From Pseudogymnoascus verrucosus (lineage: Eukaryota), in assembly GCA_001662655.1 (NCBI GenBank), contig KV460210.1: a stretch of DNA of 64,000 nucleotides; one strand, given 5' to 3'. A program made the translations under genes and the position numbers. This document shows, one piece after another, positions 906 to 20,508 of this stretch; position 1 is the first letter of the stretch, and the number at the start of each line of letters is the position of its first letter. The notes beneath the pieces are model-generated. The model had not been told where the DNA came from. It ran no database searches and was given only the letters and a program-made list of their open reading frames with translations.

Positions 906-2312
<1,407 letters not shown>

Positions 2313-4326: not shown

Positions 4327-5668
4327 TCAGCTTTTGTTAGCCTTTCTAGCTGATGCAGACACATTAGTCGTATGCTTAGACGGCAGTTTAAACCCTTCTC
4401 CGTACCGCTCCATAAATTGCGAATCTCGCCCTTCTCTCTCCATATCGTCTGAGGCAGTTGCAGTCTCGCCTCCTAATCGCGGCTCCCTTTCATTAGTGGT
4501 ATTGATGGTGATGGTAACCATATCTCGCGATATCTGTCGGACAGTCTCGTTGTCAAGATAGCCACCTATTTGCCTCGACCTCCACCCAACCGCCCGATTT
4601 GTACCATGAAGAGTCTTTCCATTAGCTGAAACCATGACTTGCACCGCATCGCCCGTTGCATGATTCTCAATGATACTTATATTTTGCTCTAAATGGTTGC
4701 CTGCCGTGGATAGTATATCCATAGACTTCCGCGTTGACTGCCACTCTTCCCGCAACCTAGTAATGTCGGCTGCATTCTCTTGAGAGAAGGTGGCAGGCTC
4801 CAGCTTGTTCATTAGCCTATCAAAGAGCTGCTTCTCGTGGCTGGCCAACTGTTGGGCCATTCGAGCAAGACTGCCCTTGCACTCCTTTAGGCCATCGTTG
4901 GTGATTTTCTCAGGTATAGAGCTCGGGCCGTCAGCCGCATTAGCGCCAGCATTATGTAGAGTTGTGCGATGAATTTGGTCAATGTGTTCAGAGAGCTGGG
5001 AACAGATCTGTAGACATTTTTGTGTACTTAGGCGCTCGTCCTTTATCCGCTTCACTTCAGATGCGTTTAGTTCTGATCCAGCTACATTTTGACTAAGTAT
5101 ACGCTCAAGCTTCTCGTCCATTCTCTCAAGGTGATCCTCAAGGCCAGCTCTAGCGGTATCAAGGAGATCGTTATAGCTCTCAACGCTTTCAGCTGTAAGG
5201 GCAGACAGTCGACTGTGGAATTTTAAGGTCAGCGACTACTATAATGCACCAAGCGGCATCATCAGATACTTACAGATTTGCATCAGAGAGAGCAATAGTT
5301 ATAGTCATCTTGTAGCCGGATAGAACTCGTCTAAAGCTGTCAATGTCGTCCCCCATATACCTCAACCTAGCCCAATCTCGGAAGCTCGTACGGCTGCCGC
5401 TCGACCGCTGAGAACATTTGTGTATTTCTTGCTCGAACTCTTCGCAGGCCTTGCCGCATCGCCGAAGAGGAACCTCGAGAGCAGTAAGATCTAGGTCAGT
5501 AGAGCTTATCGTCTCCGTAAGTGAGCCTAGCACTCCACTTAATGCGCTGGTCTCTCTTGCGAAATCCCGTACGCGCTCTTGGTGAGAATTAAAGCTGTCA
5601 ACTGTCTTGTAGAGCGCGACGCTTGCCTGGAGGGCGAACGTGGCCAGATCTACTAACCCAGAGGCCAT
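4327..5668 (-). CDS. HeLo-like/PigL-N (fungal STAND N-terminal) domain protein, 2 exons
   Basis: Hydrophobic N-terminal helix MASGLVDLATFALQASVALY, then L..PL.RC..AC.EF..SFRDWARLRYMG.DI..F...L.GYK.TI.IAL typical of Helo_like_N; intron 5273-5213 (GTAAGT..CTGAC..CAG) joins it in frame to ORF 4327-5121. Confidence 0.75.
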
Positions 5669-6209
5669 TGTAAAACAAAGGCTACTCTAATGCAACAAAG
5701 TAAAGTTAGGACACAACACTTTTGCGATACAGACCTCAGGATTAAGTAGGATGATATTGTTGTCGTGGTTCTACAAAGCGTTCATGTTTTCATGTAGTGC
5801 TTTGCGCTACAACTAGACGGAGCGGGGTGTGATATTCCTTGGCGATTCTCTTGGGCGGGGTCACGTTGGACCGAGGAGACACAAGTTGTGGAGGTCAGAA
5901 AGCGGCGGAATGCCTGTGCACGAGCGTTGCCTAATTAGGTAGGCACTAAGCTTAGGCGGGTCAAACACCACAATCTAGATTATAAGTTTATATAAGGTTG
6001 TGGTGTTGGAGCGGCCGTTTTCGGCTGGTGTTAGTTGCTGCTTTACGCAGCCCTGAACACCAACATCTCATCACGTGCCTAGCTTGTGGTAAGTACCTTC
6101 ACATAGTAATTTGTATATAAAGGTACATAAATATGCCATTATCCGAAATTATCACCTCACCCCCACCCTCACTCCCACGCTCGCTTTCGGGGGCTTCTGG
6201 GTCTGGAAT

Positions 6210-6325
6210 CAGCAAGGAGGACACAGGCGGTGGCTATGGCAAGGTGTCTACCAGGGCATGGATCTGGCAAGAACGCCTCCTTGCTGAAAGAACGATATTC
6301 TTCACCCCTTCTGCCCTAAAATTCG
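6210..6325 (+). pseudogene. HET-domain (PF06985-like) gene fragment
   Basis: GKVSTRAWIWQERLLAERTIFFTPSALKF matches the L.TRAW..QERLL..R.L.F block of fungal HET-domain proteins; truncated by the transposon relic that follows. Confidence 0.6.
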
Positions 6326-6835
6326 CAGCTCAAACTCCAGAGGAATTGGGAGGCCAGCTTTGCGGAGCTGGGCCAGTGCCTTCTTCCGGAGGCGCTCTTC
6401 CTTCCGGGCCTCAACTCCAGCTCTACGGAGCTGCCTCTGGGCCCGGTTTGCAGCCTGGCGGGCTACCCGAGCTTCTTTGGCTCGGAGCTTCCGGGCCTGA
6501 AGCTCGTAAGCGTGGGTAGCTGTAAACTCACCTCCAACCTGAAGTCGGTCCCGGCTCCGGCTTGCCCGCTTCTTCGAGTCCTCCACCTGCCTCCGAACAG
6601 CCCGTAGGTCTAGCTCTTGGAGCTGACCTGCCACTACTACGTCTTCTGTGCTGGCAAGCCAATTCTGGTAGCTCTCCTTCGAGGGGCTGCTAAAGCCTCT
6701 ATAACCCAGTGTTTCCAGTGCTGTAGCCCCTCTTCTACCCACTGAAGAGTGGAGGGTTTAGGTGTAGAAACCTAGATTGGCAGTGCAGGTGTAGGCTCTG
6801 TAGTAGGCAGGATGTAATTCAGCGCTAAATTCTAG
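6326..6835 (-). mobile_element. Degenerate pogo/Fot1-like DNA transposase C-terminal fragment
   Basis: KKRASRSRDRLQVGGEFTA..RRAGVEARKEERLRKK..GLPIP resembles the basic helical tail of fungal pogo transposases; no DDE core or intact start. Confidence 0.5.
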
Positions 6836-7346: not shown

Positions 7347-10300
7347 ATGTCATATCCCAAACAACCAGGCAGGTCTAGCAAGCAACTAGGAAACATTTAT
7401 ACGAACGAAAACGCAATAGTCCACGTTGGGGATATACACCATATCGGTAAGCCCTTTTAGATATCAAAGAGGAAAACCACTGACACACGATAGGCCGAGA
7501 GGATCCCCTCGACCTCCTCCCATTTGCAACAAATGCACCGTTTAACTCCTACGACGGCCAACACGAACCCACCTGCCTTCCCGACACTCGCGTTGACCTT
7601 CTACAACAAATATATGATTGGGCGGATAGACAAGATGAGCGATGTATCTTCTGGCTAAATGGCTTAGCTGGCACAGGAAAATCAACAGTTGCGCGCACTG
7701 TCGCCCGCAGATTTTATGAGCAGAAGTGCCTTGGAGCCAGCTTCTTCTTCTCAATAGGTGGTGGAGATGTGAGCCATGCTGGCAAGTTCTTTACCAGTCT
7801 TGCTGTGCAGCTCGCGTATGCTGTACCATCTCTTCGAGAACATATCTCCGATGCTGTTTCTAAGTGCAAAGATATTGCGAACCAGTCCCTCCACGACCAG
7901 TGGCGCCAACTTGTCCTCCACCCATTATCAAAGCTGGACGACAACAGTCGCCAATGCTCATATATCTTGATAGTTGATGCGCTTGATGAGTGTAAGGACG
8001 ATAATAATATACGGATTATTCTGCAGCTCTTAGGTGAGGCTCGGTTGTTAAAGACAGTACGGCTTCGGGTCTTTTTAACAAGCAGACCTGAAATTCCTAT
8101 CCGATACGGTATGCACTATATCCCGCAGGCTGAACATCAGGACTTTGTTCTTCATAGTTTATCTCCATCGACTGTCGATCATGATATTTCAATATTCTTA
8201 GAATATAATCTTGCAGTGATCAGGCGGGAATGGGACCTTGGGCCTGGCTGGCCTGGTAATAAGGTTCTCGAACAGCTAGTTCTAAATGCTAGTGGCCTCT
8301 TCATTTGGGCGGCAACAGTATGTCGATTCATTAGTGAAGGAAAACAATTTGCAGCCAAGAGATTGGATGCTGTCCTTAAAGGCAGTAGCGACGCTGTTAC
8401 TGCACCAGAAAAGCACCTTAACAAGATATACGCTACAGTCCTTGGGCACGCTATTACAACTGAAGGCGCAGCAGAGAGGGAAGAGCTTGTTCACATGCTG
8501 AGACACATTCTTGGAAGTATAGTGGTCTTGTTCTCACCACTTTCTGCCTACTCTTTAAGCAGGCTTCTCCAGGTTAATATACGGCATGTTACCCGGGCAC
8601 TGGAGGGTCTTCATGCTATCTTAGATGTCCCAGAGGATCAAACGCACCCGCTCCGTCTCCATCATCCTTCATTTCGCGACTTCCTCCTTAATAAAGATCG
8701 ATGTGGCGATTTCTGGGTAGATGAAAGGCAGTCACATCAGATATTAGCCGATTATTGTATCCGTCTCATGGCTATATCTCTTAAGAAAGATGTTTCCAGT
8801 CAAGTAGTCCCTGGCACATATGTGGCTAACGTGGAGATTAGTCAAGTAGAGCAATTTCTTCCTCCAGAGGAGAATTACGCATGTCTGTACTGGATCGGGC
8901 ATCTTCAGAGGAGTAATACTCAGTTTTACGACAATGACCAAGTCCACATGTTCCTCCAGCTACATCTCCTTCACTGGCTTGAGGCACTTAGCTGGATGGG
9001 AAAGACTTCAGAAGGGATACTTGCAATATTATCCTTAGAGGCACTTGTTCCGGTAAGCCTTCGCTATAATATACTATAGAACCTTGACTTATCTATATCA
9101 AGGCTGGACAATGTCCCAATCTATACGCGTTTGTCCATGATGCAAAGCGATTTGCCCTGTACAACCGGTCAGTCTTCGAGCAGGCTCCCCTCGAGATATA
9201 TTCTAGTGCACTCTTATCCGCACCAACAAGGAGCATAGTGAGAAGACTGTTTAGGGACCAAGTACCCTACTGGATTCAGACATCGCCTAAAGTCCCAGAG
9301 GATTGGAGTTCCCTGCTACAAACGCTAAAAGGTCATTCGGATATTGTTAGCGCTGTTTCCTTCTCGCCAGACAGCAAGATGCTAGCATCGTCATCAAGGG
9401 ACAAGACTGCTCGGTTATGGGATGCAATCACAGGCGCTCTTCTGCAGACGCTAGAGGGCCATTCAAGCTTCGTTAATGCTGTTACCTTTTCACCTGACAG
9501 TAGACAGTTGGCGTCAGCATCAAGCGACAAGACTGTTTGTTTATGGGACGTAGTTACAGGGGCAGTATTACATACTCTCAAGGGCCATTCGAATGATGTA
9601 ACTGCTGTTGCCTTTTCGCCTGACAGTAGACAGCTGGCGTCAGCATCAACAGATGAAACAGTCAAGCTTTGGGATGCAGCTACAGGCGCTCCTCTGCAGA
9701 CGTTAGAGGGCCATTCAAGCTTCGTTAATGCTGTTGCCTTTTCACCTGACAGTAGACAGTTGGCGTCAGCATCAACAGATAAAACAGTCAAGCTTTGGGA
9801 TGCAGCTACAGGCGCTCTTCTACAGACGTTAGAGGGCCATTCAAGCTTCGTCAATGCTGTTGCCTTTTCACCTGATAGTAGACAGTTGGCGTCAGCATCA
9901 GCGGATAAAACAGTCAAGCTTTGGGACATAACTGTAGGTACAGTTTCGCAGATGCTGAAGGGCCATTTGAACGACGTAACTGCTGTTGCCTTTTCGCCTG
10001 ACGGTGGACAGCTGGCATCAGCATCGAAAGATAAGACAATAAATTTATGGGATCCATTGATGAAATCAGTGGCGCAGACACAAGAGGGAGCTTATAAGTC
10101 CTCGTTTCTTCAAGCCCAGAGATCAACTGACGAGATATCTTCAAACTTGGAGCGCGCCGACGCTAAGGAGAGTATCGAGCCCCAGATTAGAGTTCATGGC
10201 ACATTTTCAGATTCCGGATTTGCCTCGATGTCATCTTTAGCCGCTCCTAGTATAAGTAATCGTGTTGGCCAAACCCCAATTCAAGATAAACACAATATTG

Positions 10301-12350
10301 ACCAATTGCCAACAACTCCTAGTGATCAAGGGGACAACCAAAGCCCAGAGAATGAGCATAAACCAGGAGCTAGGACTACAGAAGCTGACAATGATGATTT
10401 GCAATCTGTCATTTCTGATAGGGACGAAATCTCCTCGCAAATTTCAACACAAAAAGCACAACAAGAGCTGCTTGCTGAAAAACACTTGGCTACTTTGTTA
10501 GGACAAAATGAAGATCTAAAGCCATTTTATGAAATTGCTTTAGGGCAAATGGAAAAGGAGCGCTTTGTTAACAATTTTCGAAGAATATTAAAGCGGTATT
10601 ATCTCGACCTTTTTCAGTCAGCAAATACAAATCTTGAGCGAGCGACAGTTCAAATATTAAGGAGCAGGTCCACGCGAGTCGGAATAGCGCAAGGTGTTGT
10701 GGATCGACTGACTCCCGAAAGTAATGAGGCTTATACTCAGCTTTTAGCTGATACACAAGACATCGAAGACAAGATTTCCGATTTAGAAAGTTGGATAGCT
10801 AGCAATCCTGGTTTAGTACCACCGCTAGAGCCTCAGGATAGTGGAGATGTAGTAGAAGGACAAGTGGACGACTTAGACAATATTGCCTCTGACAGTGATC
10901 AGGAAGGAGAGGAACAAGTCGTTACAAGTTATCCTTTACCAAATGTCGCGGGGATGGAGAGCTTTCTATTCCAAGGCAACGCATTTCGTTCACTTATAAC
11001 AAACACTTGCCTCTTTCTGCTCCCTGCGTCTCTCATTTCTCTTTCTCGAGTTCTTATGACGATTCCTTATAACAGGATATATTTCTCCTCCGAAGACAAT
11101 CTCTCAATCCTCAATCGAGTTCAAGGATTTGTAGAGGATCACACAGAAGAAAATTGGAATTGGTGGCCACTGCAGCCACGAATGCGGCCGTTAGGAAAAG
11201 ATCAAACGCGAGTATATTGGAAATGCGTAAGAACCTCTAGATAGAGTATTGTGTGGAATTATCTAACAAGATGTAGCACTGCGGCAGAACTCAGTGGGCA
11301 GAGATTTCACTATCTCAAGCAAACTCGTATCGATTAATATTACAAGAAAATAGACCAGTCTTGCAGAACAATCATCTCTGCAGAATCAAGCAGAAAAATT
11401 CGTGGCGCGCTACTTTGGGGAAGATGACCACTAAGACAGTTGGCACTGTCTCTACAAGAACCCAGCCGCTTACGACGCCAGGAATTACTCAACCACTCAC
11501 CCCGACCCCGCAAAGTATACAGCTCAAACCAAGCAGCGGTAGGGTACGCCAGGCTACTAATATCCTCCACAATCCTGCTGAACCTACTACAATTAATCGG
11601 AGTGAAGTTCGGGTTGGAATTAGTGAACTATCAGGAGGCCCATATGTTCTTTTTGGAGTCAAGGGTCCACGACGTACGTTGGAGCTAGAACAAATAGAAG
11701 TCAATGAAAATTCCGACGACAATACTTTTTTCCAAAGTCTGACGCAGGCTTATAGAAAACACCGAGGTTTTTGGCGGTATTGGTTCTCGATCTGGCAACT
11801 TACTCACTGCGATTTTGTAAAGGTTTGTGTAAATCCTTTATATTATATATTGACTGACAATGTCCAGTTTCTAAAGCTTAGAGCAAATCGTATAATTTTT
11901 CATAGCAAGAGTCTTCCAGACGATATAATATACGAATATCGACCTCGTCCGCCCACAGCCGAAAACCCGCCTATCCTCCCACACGAATTTGAGCTAGCTT
12001 TCTCAGCATGCTCTTCTAATTGCCTGCTCTCCACCTTGCACGATTGTGTAGATCCACCCATTGGGAAGTTTGCGGTAGAGCGGATTCCGAAACGGAAAAG
12101 CATGATCCACTTCTCTACTAATAATTTGGAATTTGCGTGGGGTATCCAAGCACAACACGCCATCTCAGCCCTCAGGATGGTAGTATACCATCTCCTTATC
12201 TTCGCTAGCACATTTGGATTTTGGGCGTGGTGGTTGGTATTCCATCCAAATGATTTGCAGAATGCGGCCGTGCCGCTCACCACAATTGTCGTGTTGCTTT
12301 CACTGTTTTGGGGCGCAGCAGGTGTTTTGAAATTTAGGAGGCAGGATTAG
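7347..12350 (+). CDS. Fungal NLR: N-terminal amyloid motif - NACHT - 6x WD40 - long C-terminal domain with terminal hydrophobic segments (~1600 aa, 5 exons)
   Basis: Exons 7347-7446, 7494-9052, 9103-11226, 11277-11822, 11868-12350 splice in frame at GT..AG introns. C.PDTRV..L..I..W, P-loop WLNGLAGTGKST, Walker B ILIVDALDEC, FLTSRPE, ASGLFIWA, LHHPSFRDFL; HET-E/NWD-type WD repeats. Confidence 0.88.
9316..10071 (+). repeat. Six tandem 126-bp high-identity WD40 repeats
   Basis: Unit LQTLEGHSSFVNAVAFSPDSRQLASASTDKTVKLWDAATGAL; repeats 4 and 5 are near-identical at the DNA level. Confidence 0.95.
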
Positions 12351-12964: not shown

Positions 12965-13200
12965 TGTAACGCTGCTTCCTAAAACGATAGGATACACAGA
13001 GGTTTCTTGCGTAAGGGTTGACTTATCAGAGGAAGCAGGGGATCAGACACAAAGGCTTCAAGTAACGCGTTACAGTATATAACAAATATTATATTGAGTT
13101 GAGCACGAAACTCTAATCTAAGAAATAACTATCTACTTTTGAAGTGGCGTCGTGCCAAGGGATATATGGATAGTATGGATATATTAACATATCCTTCTGT
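12965..13200 (+). mobile_element. Solo-LTR-like repeat, copy 1
   Basis: Starts TGTAAC; aligns over ~230 bp with the reverse complement of 58055-58314. Confidence 0.65.
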
Positions 13201-15295: not shown

Positions 15296-16413
15296 TCAAT
15301 CTTCTTCGAACCACTTATCTTCCAAAAGATCTTGGGCAGTCAGCCGATCTCTTGGGTTGAGTTTCATCACCCTGAGCACAAACTCTTTATCCTCCTTGCA
15401 AGTTTCTCGGGCGGTTGTAAGATGGAAAGGTCTCATCGACTTCGGAGGGGTGTTTTTCATTATCCACACTAAAACCGCCAATCTTTCCTGGTTCGCAATC
15501 TGCTCGTACGACTCTGGAAATGGTCCGAAACAGATATGGTGTCTCATCAGAATTTTGACCTCGTATTCATCATGGCCTACGGAAACGTCTGGTTTGAAGA
15601 TGTGGAACCCTTCTCCGTATATGAGACTGATAAGCTGTAGTATCAATAAAATTAGACCGAGAATAAATAATTTAGTGTAGAGGGATAATTTAAAACTTGC
15701 CGTTGCACCAAAAGACCAGATGTCAGTTGCGGTACCCCATCTCATTTGCAGATGTGCTTCTGGGCTCCTAAACATAGGTGTTCCTATCGAGTCCCCATCC
15801 CGGGCATGAGTAGAATCCACATGGACAGTGCTCCCAAAATCAGCCAGTTGAACATCCTTAAACCGAATTCCAACTGGCGCATAATTCGCAAGTATGTTGC
15901 TTAGCTTAACGTCTATAGTGCATCTTGGTTAGAGAGTTCCATATAAACGCGGTATTGGTCACATCTCAAGAAACGGACATGTGTGAACAAAACCCTCAGT
16001 ATGCAAGATAGCTAGCGCCTTTAGCACCCTACGTGCGACATATTTAACTTCAAGTCGTGTGAGGCGCTGGAAATTAGAAGCTTGGAGTACGTCGACATCT
16101 AGATGTCTTAAGTAAGACTCGGAGGGCTGTGGGTGGATTCAACCTCGTCAAGTAGCGGGCGGATGAATGGTGTTCGGTTTTGGAACCGAATTAGAATATC
16201 TCGTTCGTTTTCTAGGCGAAAGTGGTTAACACTTTTAACAACTACATTCTCGTTGTTTTGGTTCCATCAATGGCATTAATTAAAGCCTATAGTAGGACAT
16301 GTTATTTTAGGAACGCACGTTGCTAGCCACACGCAGCCCTGCAGTTGCTTCGTAACTGTATAAAGGCTGTGTTTACCCTTCAATGTTTGACCAAGCTTCA
16401 TCGCAGTACCCAT
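15296..16413 (-). pseudogene. Ser/Thr protein kinase (fungal CMGC/SRPK-like), apparently inactivated
   Basis: VVVKS, ADFG, GTPMFRSPE, TDIWSFG motifs; 1-nt frameshift near 16112 (..agt ctt act TAA); spliced catalytic loop reads HT-Y-VKLSN instead of HTD.KP.N. Confidence 0.7.
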
Positions 16414-16614
16414 CTTTTAGATGGCCATTGGGAGAGGTGGTAGGTGGCATTTACGTGAGGCAGTGTCGAACTATGCACGTGATGTAGATTCCAGCCTTAA
16501 ATTTCATATATCACATTCATGGGATTGTCTATGTAGCCTATGGTCAACATATAACTTGGAAGCTATTATTGAATTCGCAACTTCATATTCTTATCTATAT
16601 ATCTATCAACGCTC

Positions 16615-17928
16615 TCAATACTCAGTAACCTGCTTAATGCTATCATAAACCCCTTCACACACCTGTCAGTAACTGTCGTACAAATTATAAAGGAAGGTAA
16701 CTTACTCGCAACATCTGGGATATTGAGCTTCTCATACAACAACGGCATATGTATACTCCATCCCGCACACCTCTTCACCGGCGCCTCCAGCCTCAAAAAC
16801 GTCTCCTTATCTTCTTGGATAGCGGCGGCAACCTCAGCCCCGATACCCGCATTAATCATGCTCTCATGAACCACCACACAACGTCCCGTCTTCCTCACAC
16901 TCTTTAGAACAGTCTCCTTGTCCCACGGGTATACCGTCCTCAAATCGATCAACTCCACGCTCAATCCCAAGTCTTTCTCGATGTGCTCGATCGCTGCACT
17001 GCAGGTGTACAGAGGGTGGCCATATGAGATCACAGTCACGTCGGAGCCTGGCTTCATGATCTCCGCGGATGATAGAGGGAGAGTGTATGAAGAGACGGGG
17101 ACTTGCTCGACGGCAGCGCGGTAGAGGGCTTTGGGCTCCATGAAAATGCAAGGGTCGTTCGAGGCGATGGCCGCCAGCAACAGGCCCTTTGCTTGAATGG
17201 GACCGCGAGGCATGATGACGCGCAGGCCGGGGATATGTGTAAATAAACTCTCTGGGGATTGCGAGTGGTATCTTTGCTTGGTTAGCATCTTATTTTGACA
17301 AAACCGAAATACCTGGGAAGGGAACATACAAAGCACCATGACCAACCCCACCACAAGGCATCCTAACGGTGAGACCACCAACACCCCTTCCATTCGTTCC
17401 ATCACGATACCTATACTTGGCCGCCTCGTTCACAAGCTGGTCAAAAGCCGGGTATACATAATCCGCGAACTGAATCTCGGCTACAGGCCGCATTCCTTCG
17501 GCCGCCAGCCCAATCCCGAAACCCAAAATACCCTGTTCAGTAAGCGGTGTATTAAAGACGCGATCACTGCCAAAGTTCTGCGACAGGTTCATCGAGCACC
17601 GAAATACTCCTCCAAAGGCCACATCTTCGCCGAAGAGGAGCACTGAGTCGTCTGTTGCCAGAGCGGTCGAGAGCGCGTCATTGATGGCTTGGAACAGGTT
17701 CATGCGCTTCGTTGTGCTGTTTCGAACTTCAGCAGAGAGCTCGGGGTTTCTTAGAGCTGATTGAGAAGAGTGACTGAGGATTGGAGTCGTGGAGAAGTCT
17801 GTCGGTATGTTGAGCCGGGCATTTGGAGGGCTTGTCGAGTACTGGCGGCCACTTGCGGTCGAGGAAGCGGATGAGGTGACGGCACGTAAGACCTGCGCCG
17901 TGGGGCGAATTATCCTGAGAGACTTCAT
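16615..17928 (-). CDS. BCKDHB: 2-oxoisovalerate (branched-chain alpha-keto acid) dehydrogenase E1 beta subunit, mitochondrial; 2 introns
   Basis: [58 protein letters not shown] after splicing; Arg/Ser-rich presequence. Confidence 0.95.
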
Positions 17929-18294
17929 GCTGGGCAACACTCTACAGGACTCAAAAATGAATTATGAAGTTAGAAGAGACAAAGGGATATATCCCCATTC
18001 TTTTCAAAGCGTTGAAGTATGGGGAATGCGGGCGGGGAGGGCTTATCGGCTACCTGCGGCTTGTGGTGGGAGTCGCATCGTCGAGTCCATCCCGCTTCCA
18101 GACCCTTATCGTCGCACAGGCCACGCGATTGTTGCTCCGTCAACCGCCAAGTGACGACGCTGACCCTGCAATTACGAGATGCAAGGATGCGGTCGCAAAA
18201 GATGTCGACGATACCGATTAATTAATCTATTATTCTAGAACGAAGGCATATACAATTGAATAGATCGAATTATCGTTTTGGTCGCAAGGATAGA

Positions 18295-20508
18295 ATGCCT
18301 CGCGAGGCTGAACGACCCAGAAATCGGGAGCGAGATCCGGATAGAGAGCGAGAGAGGGAGCGGCGAAGACGTGAAAGGGAAAGAGACCCAGAAAGGGAGG
18401 AGCGACGGCACCGCGAACGGGACCCGGATAGGGAACAACGACGGCGTGAAAGGGACCCGGAAAGAGAGCTGGAGAGGGAGGAACGAAGGAGGGAAAGAGC
18501 GAGGAGGAAATCCCGAAACCCTGATAGAGATTCGAGGGACTCGAGGGACTCCCGGTCAAGGGAGGAGCCGCCTTCCTCACAATCAAGTTCGCAACCCCTA
18601 TCCGCCGATTCACTAGCGAAACTCAATCAACTCAATAAGAAAGAGAAGTCGCGAAAACCAGAGAAAAAGGCGGAACGGCCCAGGAAAAAGCGTCACAGGG
18701 AAGCGTTCAATGAGAAATACGAAGCGATCGGTGTCGACAAACCAAGGCGGGACAAGAAGAAAAAGAGGCGAGTTGTGAGCGGCGCCTTACTAGAAGAAGG
18801 GGATGGAAAGAGGTTATCGTATATAAGAGGAGGAGGTTACGACAAACAGGCGGAAGCAGATGCAAGGAAGAGGAAAAAGCGGATATGGATCATTGTTGGA
18901 GTTATTGTTTTGCTACTTGCCATTATTATACCCGTTGCCGTTGTTCTTTCCAACAAGAACAAGGGCAGCAACACAGCCGCAGCGGATACAGCGGCGACGG
19001 CTCCGACGCCTACAGGACCGGCGAATACGAATTTGGATGGCGTTGATCCTGCTAGCGTACCAGCAGCTGCGAAGGGGACGCGATTGGATCCTTTCTCCTG
19101 GTATGACACGGAGGATTTTAATGTCACGTACACTGGCGCGACAGTTGGTGGGCTGCCAGTAATAGGGTTATTCTCGAAGTGGGATGACTCTGCGAAAGCA
19201 AACGACAAAGTGCCAGCATTGAACCAGCCATGGGGAACCTATGCAAGTAGGCCCGCTAGAGGTGTCAACGTAGGGGGCTGGTTATCGATAGAGCCGTTTA
19301 TCACGCCCTCGCTGTTCAGTGGTTATAGCACGAGTCTTGGGGTTATTGATGAATGGACGCTATGCGAGCACCTGGGCCCGGCTACCGCAAAGGACACTCT
19401 GGAGAAACATTACTCCACATTCGTGACGGAGCAGACGTTTGCAGACATCAAAGATGCAGGCCTGGACCACGTCCGTATTCCATTCTCATATTGGGCCTTG
19501 CAAAATTACTACGGCGAGCCTTACGTCGAAGGCGTAGCATGGCGATACCTCCTCAGAGGGATCGAATGGGCTCGCAAATACGGTCTCCGCATCAACTTAG
19601 ACGTACACGGTTTGCCAGGTAGCCAAAACGGCTGGAACCATAGCGGTCGCCAAGGAGACATCGGCTGGCTCAACGGAACCGACGGCGATGTCAACGCCGA
19701 GCGATCCCTCGAGATCCACCGCTCCCTCTCGGCATTCTTCTCCCAGCCGCGCTACAAAAACATCATCGCCTTCTACGGCCTCGTCAACGAGCCCAAGATG
19801 ACAGCCTTACAACCAACCGACGTCTACGCCTGGACCGAGAAGGCATACGCCATCGTCCGCGCAAACGGCATCACCTGTCCTATCGTCTTCGGTGACGGCT
19901 TTCTGGGTCTCGAGAACTGGAAGGGGCAGCTGCAGGGCCATGAGGGGCTGGTGCTTGATGTCCACCAATACGTGATTTTTAATGTGGGACAGATCGTCTA
20001 TACTAAGGAGGCGAAAGTCAAGTATGCTTGCACGGGCTGGACGGGGCAGGCGGAGCAGAGCATGGATGTCTCGACGGGCTTTGGACCAACCCTCTTCGCT
20101 GAGTGGTCACAGGCCGACACCGATTGCGCCACATACCTGAACAACGTCGGCTGGGGAAATCGCTGGGAAGGCACCTACGACACCGGCAACCCCCTAACAC
20201 GCGTACTCTCAGCAACATGCCCCACCAACAACGGCGGTCCAGTATGCTCCTGCACGTCCGCAAACGCGGATCCAAGCCAGTATTCCGACGGGTACAAGCA
20301 GTTCCTGCAGATGTTCGCGGAGGCGCAGATGGATAGCTTTGAGCACGGGTGGGGCTGGTTCTACTGGACGTGGCAGACGGAGACGGCGACGCAGTGGAGT
20401 TATAAGAGGGGTCTTGCGGCGGGGATTTTGCCGGCCAAGGCGTATGCGCCGGAGTTTAATTGTCAGAAGACGATTCCGGATTTTGCGGGGGTGCCGGAGA
20501 ATTATTGA
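18295..20508 (+). CDS. exgD: GH5 glucan 1,3-beta-glucosidase, type II membrane protein (ExgD-like)
   Basis: RE-rich cytosolic N-terminus, one TM helix (IWIIVGVIVLLLAIIIPVAVV), RGVNVGGWLSIEPFITPS, DVHGLPGSQNGWNHSG, catalytic NEP and AEWS. Confidence 0.9.
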   Translation: MPREAERPRNRERDPDRERERERRRRERERDPEREERRHRERDPDREQRRRERDPERELEREERRRERARRKSRNPDRDSRDSRDSRSREEPPSSQSSSQPLSADSLAKLNQLNKKEKSRKPEKKAERPRKKRHREAFNEKYEAIGVDKPRRDKKKKRRVVSGALLEEGDGKRLSYIRGGGYDKQAEADARKRKKRIWIIVGVIVLLLAIIIPVAVVLSNKNKGSNTAAADTAATAPTPTGPANTNLDGVDPASVPAAAKGTRLDPFSWYDTEDFNVTYTGATVGGLPVIGLFSKWDDSAKANDKVPALNQPWGTYASRPARGVNVGGWLSIEPFITPSLFSGYSTSLGVIDEWTLCEHLGPATAKDTLEKHYSTFVTEQTFADIKDAGLDHVRIPFSYWALQNYYGEPYVEGVAWRYLLRGIEWARKYGLRINLDVHGLPGSQNGWNHSGRQGDIGWLNGTDGDVNAERSLEIHRSLSAFFSQPRYKNIIAFYGLVNEPKMTALQPTDVYAWTEKAYAIVRANGITCPIVFGDGFLGLENWKGQLQGHEGLVLDVHQYVIFNVGQIVYTKEAKVKYACTGWTGQAEQSMDVSTGFGPTLFAEWSQADTDCATYLNNVGWGNRWEGTYDTGNPLTRVLSATCPTNNGGPVCSCTSANADPSQYSDGYKQFLQMFAEAQMDSFEHGWGWFYWTWQTETATQWSYKRGLAAGILPAKAYAPEFNCQKTIPDFAGVPENY

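Follow-up and report, generated by a model that had tools for sequence, protein, structure and literature searches.

An HRAM-type R0 motif in a NACHT-WD40 receptor of Pseudogymnoascus verrucosus, its probable uncoupling from a partner, and the phase-1 intron at its boundary

Described systems and the receptor gene

The closest described receptor is NWD2 of Podospora anserina, in which a short N-terminal R0 motif is followed by NACHT and WD40 domains and the gene adjoins that of its effector (PMC4344463; published sources are cited here from the available part of their text). Residues V16, V18 and G19 are each needed for NWD2 activity, and the motif and NACHT are both situated on exon 1 (PMC4344463). 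HRAM motifs are defined by Gly19 and by hydrophobic residues at positions 5, 8, 10 (Thr allowed), 16 and 18, with Arg or Lys preferred at 15 and with Asn, Gln or His at position 3 according to subfamily; for Pseudogymnoascus pannorum the list of HRAM3 effectors has six entries (Daskalov, Dyrka, Saupe 2015, PMC4518210). The barrier between HET-s and HELLF was breached by altering positions 1-4 and 16-18 (bioRxiv 2020.07.06.188508). Fungal NLRs with near-identical NOD domains carry different N-terminal domains, and the architectures are dispersed across the tree of NOD domains (Dyrka et al. 2014, PMC4986451). In the S1 Table of Wojciechowski et al. (2022, PMC9815663), the protein OBU00199.2 is given as NACHT-WD with NLR13 (HRAM) at residues 10-33, and its relatives KFZ24428.1 and OBT42047.1 bear the same label.

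The gene of OBU00199.2 lies in the window analysed here, a stretch of 64,000 nucleotides on contig KV460210.1 of P. verrucosus (assembly GCA_001662655.1; Table 1). The five-exon model predicts 1603 amino acids and shows 0 mismatches over all 1603 to the public protein (P0121 in our set), which is recorded under the name P. verrucosus. Exon 1 is therefore already part of the standard gene model; it is not hidden, as an earlier note on this DNA had called it, nor is its motif new, OBU00199.2 carrying the published HRAM call. The structure proposed in that note, an ATG at 7347, a 100-nt exon and a 47-nt phase-1 intron joined in frame to NACHT, agrees with the sequence and with the identical public protein, the junction being a predicted one. 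As read from the sequence, the intron has a GTAAGC donor, a CTGAC branch site and a TAG end. Removal of 7447-7493 keeps the frame from the ATG into the NACHT exon, while the unspliced frame meets a stop after 4 further codons. An in-frame stop is found 7 codons upstream of the ATG, and the homologous Met is the start in relatives. The 1603-codon frame and its splice signals are intact.

Table 1. Coordinates of the receptor gene, its neighbour and other features of the window
Feature	Position	Strand	Remarks
Flavin oxidoreductase-like gene	906-2312	+	By eye from ORF translation
PigL_N (HeLo-like, PF17111) gene, 426 aa, intact, divergent	4327..5668	-	Intron 5213-5273; C-terminal repeats mismatch R0
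Intergenic multicopy repeats	5889-6203	.	Between neighbour and NLR
HET-domain gene fragment	6214-6325	.	93% identical to a HET-domain gene; between neighbour and NLR
DDE transposase remnant	6330-6803	.	Between neighbour and NLR
Exon 1 of NLR (33 codons + 1 nt), carries R0 motif	7347..7446	+	Same layout in paralogs on contigs C47 and C6
21-residue HRAM R0 motif, residues 10-30	7374..7436	+	Core L5 I8 T10 V16 V18 G19; K3 and I15 atypical
Intron 1, 47 nt, phase 1, between N-terminal module and NACHT	7447..7493	+	Acceptor position common to 20 related loci of four module types
Exon 2, with NACHT and the helical region behind it	7494..9052	+	Pfam NPHP3_N E 4e-29, NACHT E 6e-10
Six similar WD40 repeats, residues 628-879	9325..10080	+	In exon 3 (9103-11226); Pfam and repeat inspection
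C-terminal extension, ~720 aa, no Pfam family	10081..12350	+	Exons 3-5, introns 11227-11276 and 11823-11867; hydrophobic segment at very end
Kinase-like fragment	15296-15928	-	By eye from ORF translation
2-oxoacid dehydrogenase E1 beta-like gene	16566-17961	-	By eye from ORF translation
Membrane-anchored glucanase-like gene	18226-20508	+	By eye from ORF translation

The predicted receptor resembles NWD2 in its order of short N-terminal R0, NACHT and WD40, in V16, V18 and G19, and in having no other N-terminal effector domain, and to this extent the comparison with NWD2 drawn in the earlier note stands. Unlike NWD2, it has its R0 on a separate first exon, Lys3 and Ile15 in the motif, six WD repeats, a long C-terminal extension and no matching effector beside it (PMC4344463). 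The extension resembles unnamed stand-alone ascomycete clusters (ESM Atlas, 0.93). Among the best 120 homologs, only P0008 of Zopfia rhizophila (25% identity) shows the same layout of R0, NACHT, short WD region and extension, and its motif has no Gly19. WD40 propellers usually have seven blades, and the six repeats may be too few for a closed propeller.

The R0 motif and its class

The motif is present in single copy at the N-terminus, before NACHT, which is the placement of HRAM motifs in NLRs. It has L, I, T, V and V at positions 5, 8, 10, 16 and 18 and Gly at position 19 (Gly28 of the protein), a register, also that of the ungapped HET-s R1 alignment proposed in the earlier note, which agrees with the published numbering (PMC4518210). 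This core rule is passed by 51 of 20,000 shuffles of exon 1 and by 61 of the 60,787 21-mers of the window. Position 15 is Ile, while Arg or Lys, a preference and not an absolute rule, is found there in 74 of 86 relatives. Pfam families, including the canonical HET-s prion domain, gave no match to exon 1 at E<=1. The proposal that the NLR begins with an R0-type HRAM motif and has no further effector domain at its N-terminus is borne out, and the match to an HRAM profile which the earlier note had suggested looking for is provided by the NLR13 call at residues 10-33 (PMC9815663).

Homology of the motif was evaluated against its relatives. Short N-termini occur in 45 of the 120 top-ranking NACHT homologs, and by eye 16 proteins, the window model included, were taken as one motif family, so that 15 other proteins share it. 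A matrix of the motifs of 11 of these 15 relatives (the window was excluded and four motifs with indels were dropped) gave the exon 1 peptide 26.4 bits, a score reached by 0 of 5000 shuffles. The peptide ranks first among the 60,787 six-frame 21-mers of the window, the next one scoring 7.9 bits. The score tests homology, not amyloid formation. Compared with the nearest relatives, 10 of 19 motif positions are changed, and the R0 differs from its own lineage at core positions 5, 10, 16 and 18.

By descent, the R0 belongs to an H/N3 (HRAM3-like) lineage and not to canonical HET-s, subfamily names being assigned here by the position-3 rule and not by published profiles. Canonical HET-s motifs (HRAM1, PF11558) have Asn3, where the window R0 has Lys3, and Pfam HET-s_218-289 has no match on exon 1; a further search with PF11558 matched nothing, controls included, and so is no sign of absence. 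His3 occurs in 101 of 103 effector R2 repeats of the lineage and in 57 of 86 related motifs; in this the lineage and its effectors are like HRAM3 (PMC4518210). The R0 itself scores -3.1 bits on the matrix of H3-type effector repeats (reached by 368 of 5000 shuffles), against 3.0-18.4 bits in the relatives. Neither the His3 of HRAM3 nor the Gln3 of HRAM2 (PMC4518210) is present in it, and by its core it is closer to the Q3 (HRAM2-like) effector on contig C6 than to the H3 type. On the Q3 matrix it reaches 7.6 bits (7 of 5000 shuffles), less than five cognate R0s. A search of PDB with exon 1 found no match at E<=10, and a search with the R0 profile found nothing relevant; the HeLo-family profile reached only HET-s repeat 2 in PDB (E 0.0045).

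We put at roughly 0.7 the probability that this NWD2-like NACHT-WD40 receptor carries, in exon 1, a genuine amyloid signalling motif of the HRAM R0 kind. Against this reading, Lys3 and Ile15 depart from two HRAM preferences, the peptide does no better than shuffles on the ancestral-type effector-repeat matrix, and the WD repeats may be too few for a propeller. By analogy with NWD2, for which this course of events is established, ligand binding at the WD repeats would oligomerise NACHT, and the clustered R0 peptides would stack into a beta-solenoid, which would template R1 and R2, the paired repeats of a pore-former of HeLo or HeLo-like type, and lead to cell death. The amyloid behaviour of the peptide is likewise suggested by analogy.

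Effector partners and the shifted core

As in NWD2/HET-S, the usual effector of the R0 family is a divergent HET-S homolog. The closest paralog, on contig C47 (exon 1 52% identical, NACHT 72%), stands head-to-head with a HeLo gene, a het-S homolog. Intact relatives of this HeLo gene have two His3-type repeats and proved to be HET-S homologs, matching the solved HeLo domain at E 2e-50. In addition, five consecutive locus-tag pairs join motif-family NLRs to HeLo genes; one of the NLR models is without the motif, and one pair is already published (PMC9815663). This R0 type is found at 11 other distinct loci, and at 5 of them the NLR stands head-to-head with a HeLo or HeLo-like gene no more than about 0.55 kb away. 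The other 6, including the nearest relative (L060), have no effector in the 1-5 kb upstream examined, hence unpaired copies appear common in this R0 type. The 2022 survey also suspects unpaired copies for the related class NLR12, and OBU00199.2 has 0 occurrences in the available text of its three effector-pair tables (PMC9815663). On present sequence evidence, the NLR descends from a family often paired head-to-head with H3-type het-S-like genes, and this copy is uncoupled. As no matching effector is its neighbour, any R0 signalling would have to be in trans; the predicted receptor works like NWD2 if at all, and is not a member of an intact two-gene system.

A search of the genome for HeLo proteins with matching repeats, as suggested in the earlier note, had a mixed outcome: an intact HeLo-like gene on C6 scores best, but the adjacent gene is mismatched and both H3-type het-S-like genes found are broken, the searches having scored best candidates only, so that other effectors and further R0 or R1/R2 copies may exist. 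The C47 copy has internal TAA/TAG stops, and the C9 copy has stops and frameshifts. The C47 NLR also carries stops; thus at C47 (247000-251500, L048) the whole NLR/het-S-like pair is pseudogenised, with TAA/TAG stops as from C-to-T change (RIP-like). A 199-nt stretch of the window (12965-13161) shares 80% identity with sequence that lies downstream of the HeLo gene at C47, and is probably a shared repeat element flanking both loci. At C6 (795298-800000, L049), an intact head-to-head pair was found. Its HeLo-like gene has Gln3 repeats, and its NACHT-WD40 gene carries, on a separate phase-1 exon, an R0 that also has Gln3 and matches them. No accession was matched to this NLR among the 28 rows for the species in the available 2022 table (PMC9815663).

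Two further candidates were set aside. Elsewhere on C47 (77750-79900; L050 2800-3900), an intact two-repeat HeLo gene faces an NB-ARC gene of an unrelated NOD class, of which the NLR is seen in part; by eye, the first exon of the latter is short, carries an R0-like motif and is followed by what looks like a phase-1 intron. This HeLo (C47:78769) has its own partner, and its core matches the window R0 with 8 and 16 against 24 for C6 repeat 1; the whole-motif scores are 20 and 14 against 23. PNP_UDP effectors at two loci, on C9 and C5, were also set aside; that on C9 has a kinase-like tail.

The changed motif could be vestigial, having decayed after loss of the effector or gain of the membrane-type C-terminal extension, with the receptor now acting via its C-terminal part or not at all. 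The difference from the nearest relatives at 10 of 19 positions and the breaking of family rules by Lys3 and Ile15 agree with this, and so do the 6 of 11 other loci of the type, L060 included, with no effector in the 1-5 kb upstream. The departure of the WD and extension layout from NWD2 also feeds this reading; P0008, sole homolog of 120 with the same extension, lacks Gly19, but this parallel is a single case. The five core positions and Gly19 are still compatible, the core is free of proline and charge, and the 1603-codon frame and splice signals are intact. Decay of the motif is regarded as possible but doubtful.

Re-targeting of the motif is considered unlikely. After loss of the H3-type het-S, the R0 would have shifted by point mutation to the Q3 repeats of the intact C6 HeLo-like gene and would activate it in trans, the effector being shared with the C6 NLR. 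Both H3-type het-S copies found in the genome have stops. The R0 core L-I-T-V-V-G is nearest to C6 repeat 1 (I-V-T-V-V-G), which scores best of 12 repeats (24, against 11 for the ancestral-type repeat) and carries Val16, whereas Ala occupies this position in 19 of 19 family repeats. With a Q-type matrix built from 20 relatives of the C6 protein, the Q-type minus H-type score is +12.9 for the window R0. For 18 relatives it ranges from -4.9 to -23.4, and for the five cognate Gln3 R0s from +14.7 to +23.3. The value of +12.9 is reached by 0 of 86 further relatives, with 1 of 86 above zero; these 86 are a subset of 100 new R0-profile matches gathered with an H/N3 profile, so shifted motifs are under-sampled among them. 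When the same sites were changed at random with the core kept hydrophobic, 12, 56, 320 and 25 of 20,000 runs reached the difference from four starting points.

Against re-targeting, the C6 partner was chosen post hoc, and the hallmark Gln3 is absent from the R0, where positions 1-4 help to set seeding specificity (bioRxiv 2020.07.06.188508). The absolute Q-type score of 7.6 is below all five cognate R0s (9.5-24.2). T10, V16 and V18 belong to the core of HRAM motifs in general and occur in the canonical class too (PMC4518210, PMC4344463), and since V16, V18 and G19 are essential in NWD2 as well, the shift may be towards a generic core. In the motif pN is close to pS, and as the same is observed between other relatives (0.23/0.21), nothing points to selection peculiar to this copy. 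Modelled as a complex, the R0 and the repeat region of C6 scored 0.01 with no controls folded, which counts neither for nor against. That the motif now scores best on the C6 HeLo-like repeats is suggestive only.

The divergent PigL_N neighbour, which as an intact HeLo-like gene in the usual head-to-head arrangement might be taken for the cognate effector, is very improbable in this role and was rejected because its two C-terminal repeats, though loosely recalling the HRAM pattern, reach only -8 and -15 when matched to the R0, and of the 12 repeats compared just one has a lower total than these two; moreover, it lies 1.7 kb from the NLR against about 0.35-0.7 kb in matched pairs, transposase and HET-gene debris separates the two, its paralogs on C8 and C32 have no intact NLR within the 5 kb examined, and no pair is given for this NLR in the available part of the 2022 survey (PMC9815663). 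The neighbour's intron is joined (5212/5274) in contigs of two runs, guessed to be RNA, from one study; 5-6% of words are present in these runs, and the contigs cover this intron and not 7347-7494. The nested debris at 5889-6803 suggests a rearrangement that uncoupled the NLR. A search of the ESM Atlas with the neighbour's repeats gave PigL_N leads only, all under 0.9. Long-form PigL_N proteins of ~430 aa (window 4327-5668 on the minus strand, L052 on C8 and L053 on C32) have two terminal repeats, loosely HRAM5-like, with Gln at motif position 16, and no matching NLR was seen beside these genes. As the 2015 HRAM survey kept only proteins of <=310 aa (PMC4518210), they may represent an unexamined class of amyloid-repeat proteins.

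The intron between N-terminal module and NACHT

To return to the reading of exon 1 as a genuine R0 module, its boundary with NACHT was surveyed in 83 loci, consisting of 80 metagenome loci of NACHT relatives and the three copies in the genome. With a phase-blind splice caller, 59 introns were called, 41 in phase 1, 16 in phase 2 and 2 in phase 0. With a homology-aided caller, which needed eight hand corrections (automatic calls were overruled at L080/83/87/88, L096, L115, L117 and L092) and two relabellings, 59 loci were kept, of which 53 remain without near-copies; the other 24 of 83 were dropped as too short or unresolved. A phase-1 intron, predicted in every case, is situated at the module/NACHT boundary in 42 of the 53 distinct loci. 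The modules in front of it are HET (20), H/N3 HRAM (12), Q3 HRAM (5), PNP_UDP (4) and PP-like (1); HET and PNP_UDP labels were Pfam-checked on one exon each, while PP-like and SesB-like were labelled by eye. The distance from the acceptor to one and the same conserved codon is exactly 47 nt in 20 loci, which represent four module types, and 29-50 nt in HET loci.

Introns of the same phase at a homologous boundary in genes with different modules are what exon shuffling would leave, and the suggestion of the earlier note that the motif exon could be shuffled as a module finds support here, related NACHT genes having the phase-1 intron behind HET, PNP_UDP, two HRAM types and a PP-like motif. The motif is on its own exon because the NACHT clade carries this intron. 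The NACHT tree calls for 13 module changes, against a minimum of 5 and a shuffled mean of 27.9, and the starred branches force at least 2 changes for HET, 2 for H/N3 HRAM, 4 for PNP_UDP and 6 for PP-like. As to whether exchange breakpoints fall within the intron, across 780 non-independent pairs, with no significance test, the 5' part of the intron follows module type (partial r 0.45) more than NACHT identity (0.09), and the 3' part follows both (0.22 and 0.16).

Several observations count against an exchange point. Nine of 53 loci have phase 2 (eight PP-like motifs and one SesB-like module), 2 of 53, both HET, read through with no called intron, and 24 of 83 loci were dropped. Like modules tend to group together on the tree, where 13 changes compare with a shuffled mean of 27.9, and NWD2 has no intron at its motif/NACHT boundary (PMC4344463). 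A shared intron can be plain inheritance, and an inherited intron with exchange anywhere in the linker would look similar. The chances are about evenly balanced that the clade-wide phase-1 intron serves as a socket for swaps of HET, PNP_UDP and amyloid modules in fungal NACHT receptors, that is, as the exchange point for N-terminal modules. The wider proposal, in which this socket is joined by a second route of rewiring, a natural point-mutation switch of amyloid class by which an NLR orphaned through pseudogenisation of its effector class is re-targeted in trans to the intact HeLo-like effector belonging to a different pair, is improbable.

PP-like motifs on exons ending in phase 2 (L079, L090, L105, L116, L118, L132, L134 and L135) form a second boundary type, and PNP_UDP genes nested among the PP-like loci have phase-1 introns further upstream. 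Among the 100 R0-profile matches (P0263-P0362), 87 are shorter than 200 aa and resemble first exons that gene callers extended into the intron; of the 59 matches that could be scored, 31 continue with the residue pair expected from a phase-1 GT(A/C/G)AG donor.

Since the motif and its mechanism are established and OBU00199.2 is catalogued, the finding as first written adds little. What looks unreported is the missing partner, the shifted core and the boundary intron common to different modules. Gene structure, broken het-S copies and core shift were not found in the available text of PMC9815663. The boundary intron is not mentioned in the available text of PMC4986451, PMC1805685, PMC13449251 and PMC12258605, where domain swapping is described, and no paper stating the pattern was found in the literature searched, which left most subscription papers outside. 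In the available text of PMC4986451 the word 'intron' has 0 occurrences and no mechanism of swapping is proposed, whereas here a conserved phase-1 intron is predicted at the boundary.

Swaps of NLR N-termini were described in 2014 with no mechanism (PMC4986451, available text); the conserved boundary intron would offer one, testable on annotated genomes. Seeding barriers between HRAM classes were breached by design (HEC; bioRxiv 2020.07.06.188508), and no natural case was seen in the literature consulted. An intact receptor with broken ancestral effectors and a core resembling another class would provide a test of how amyloid signalling is rewired or decays.
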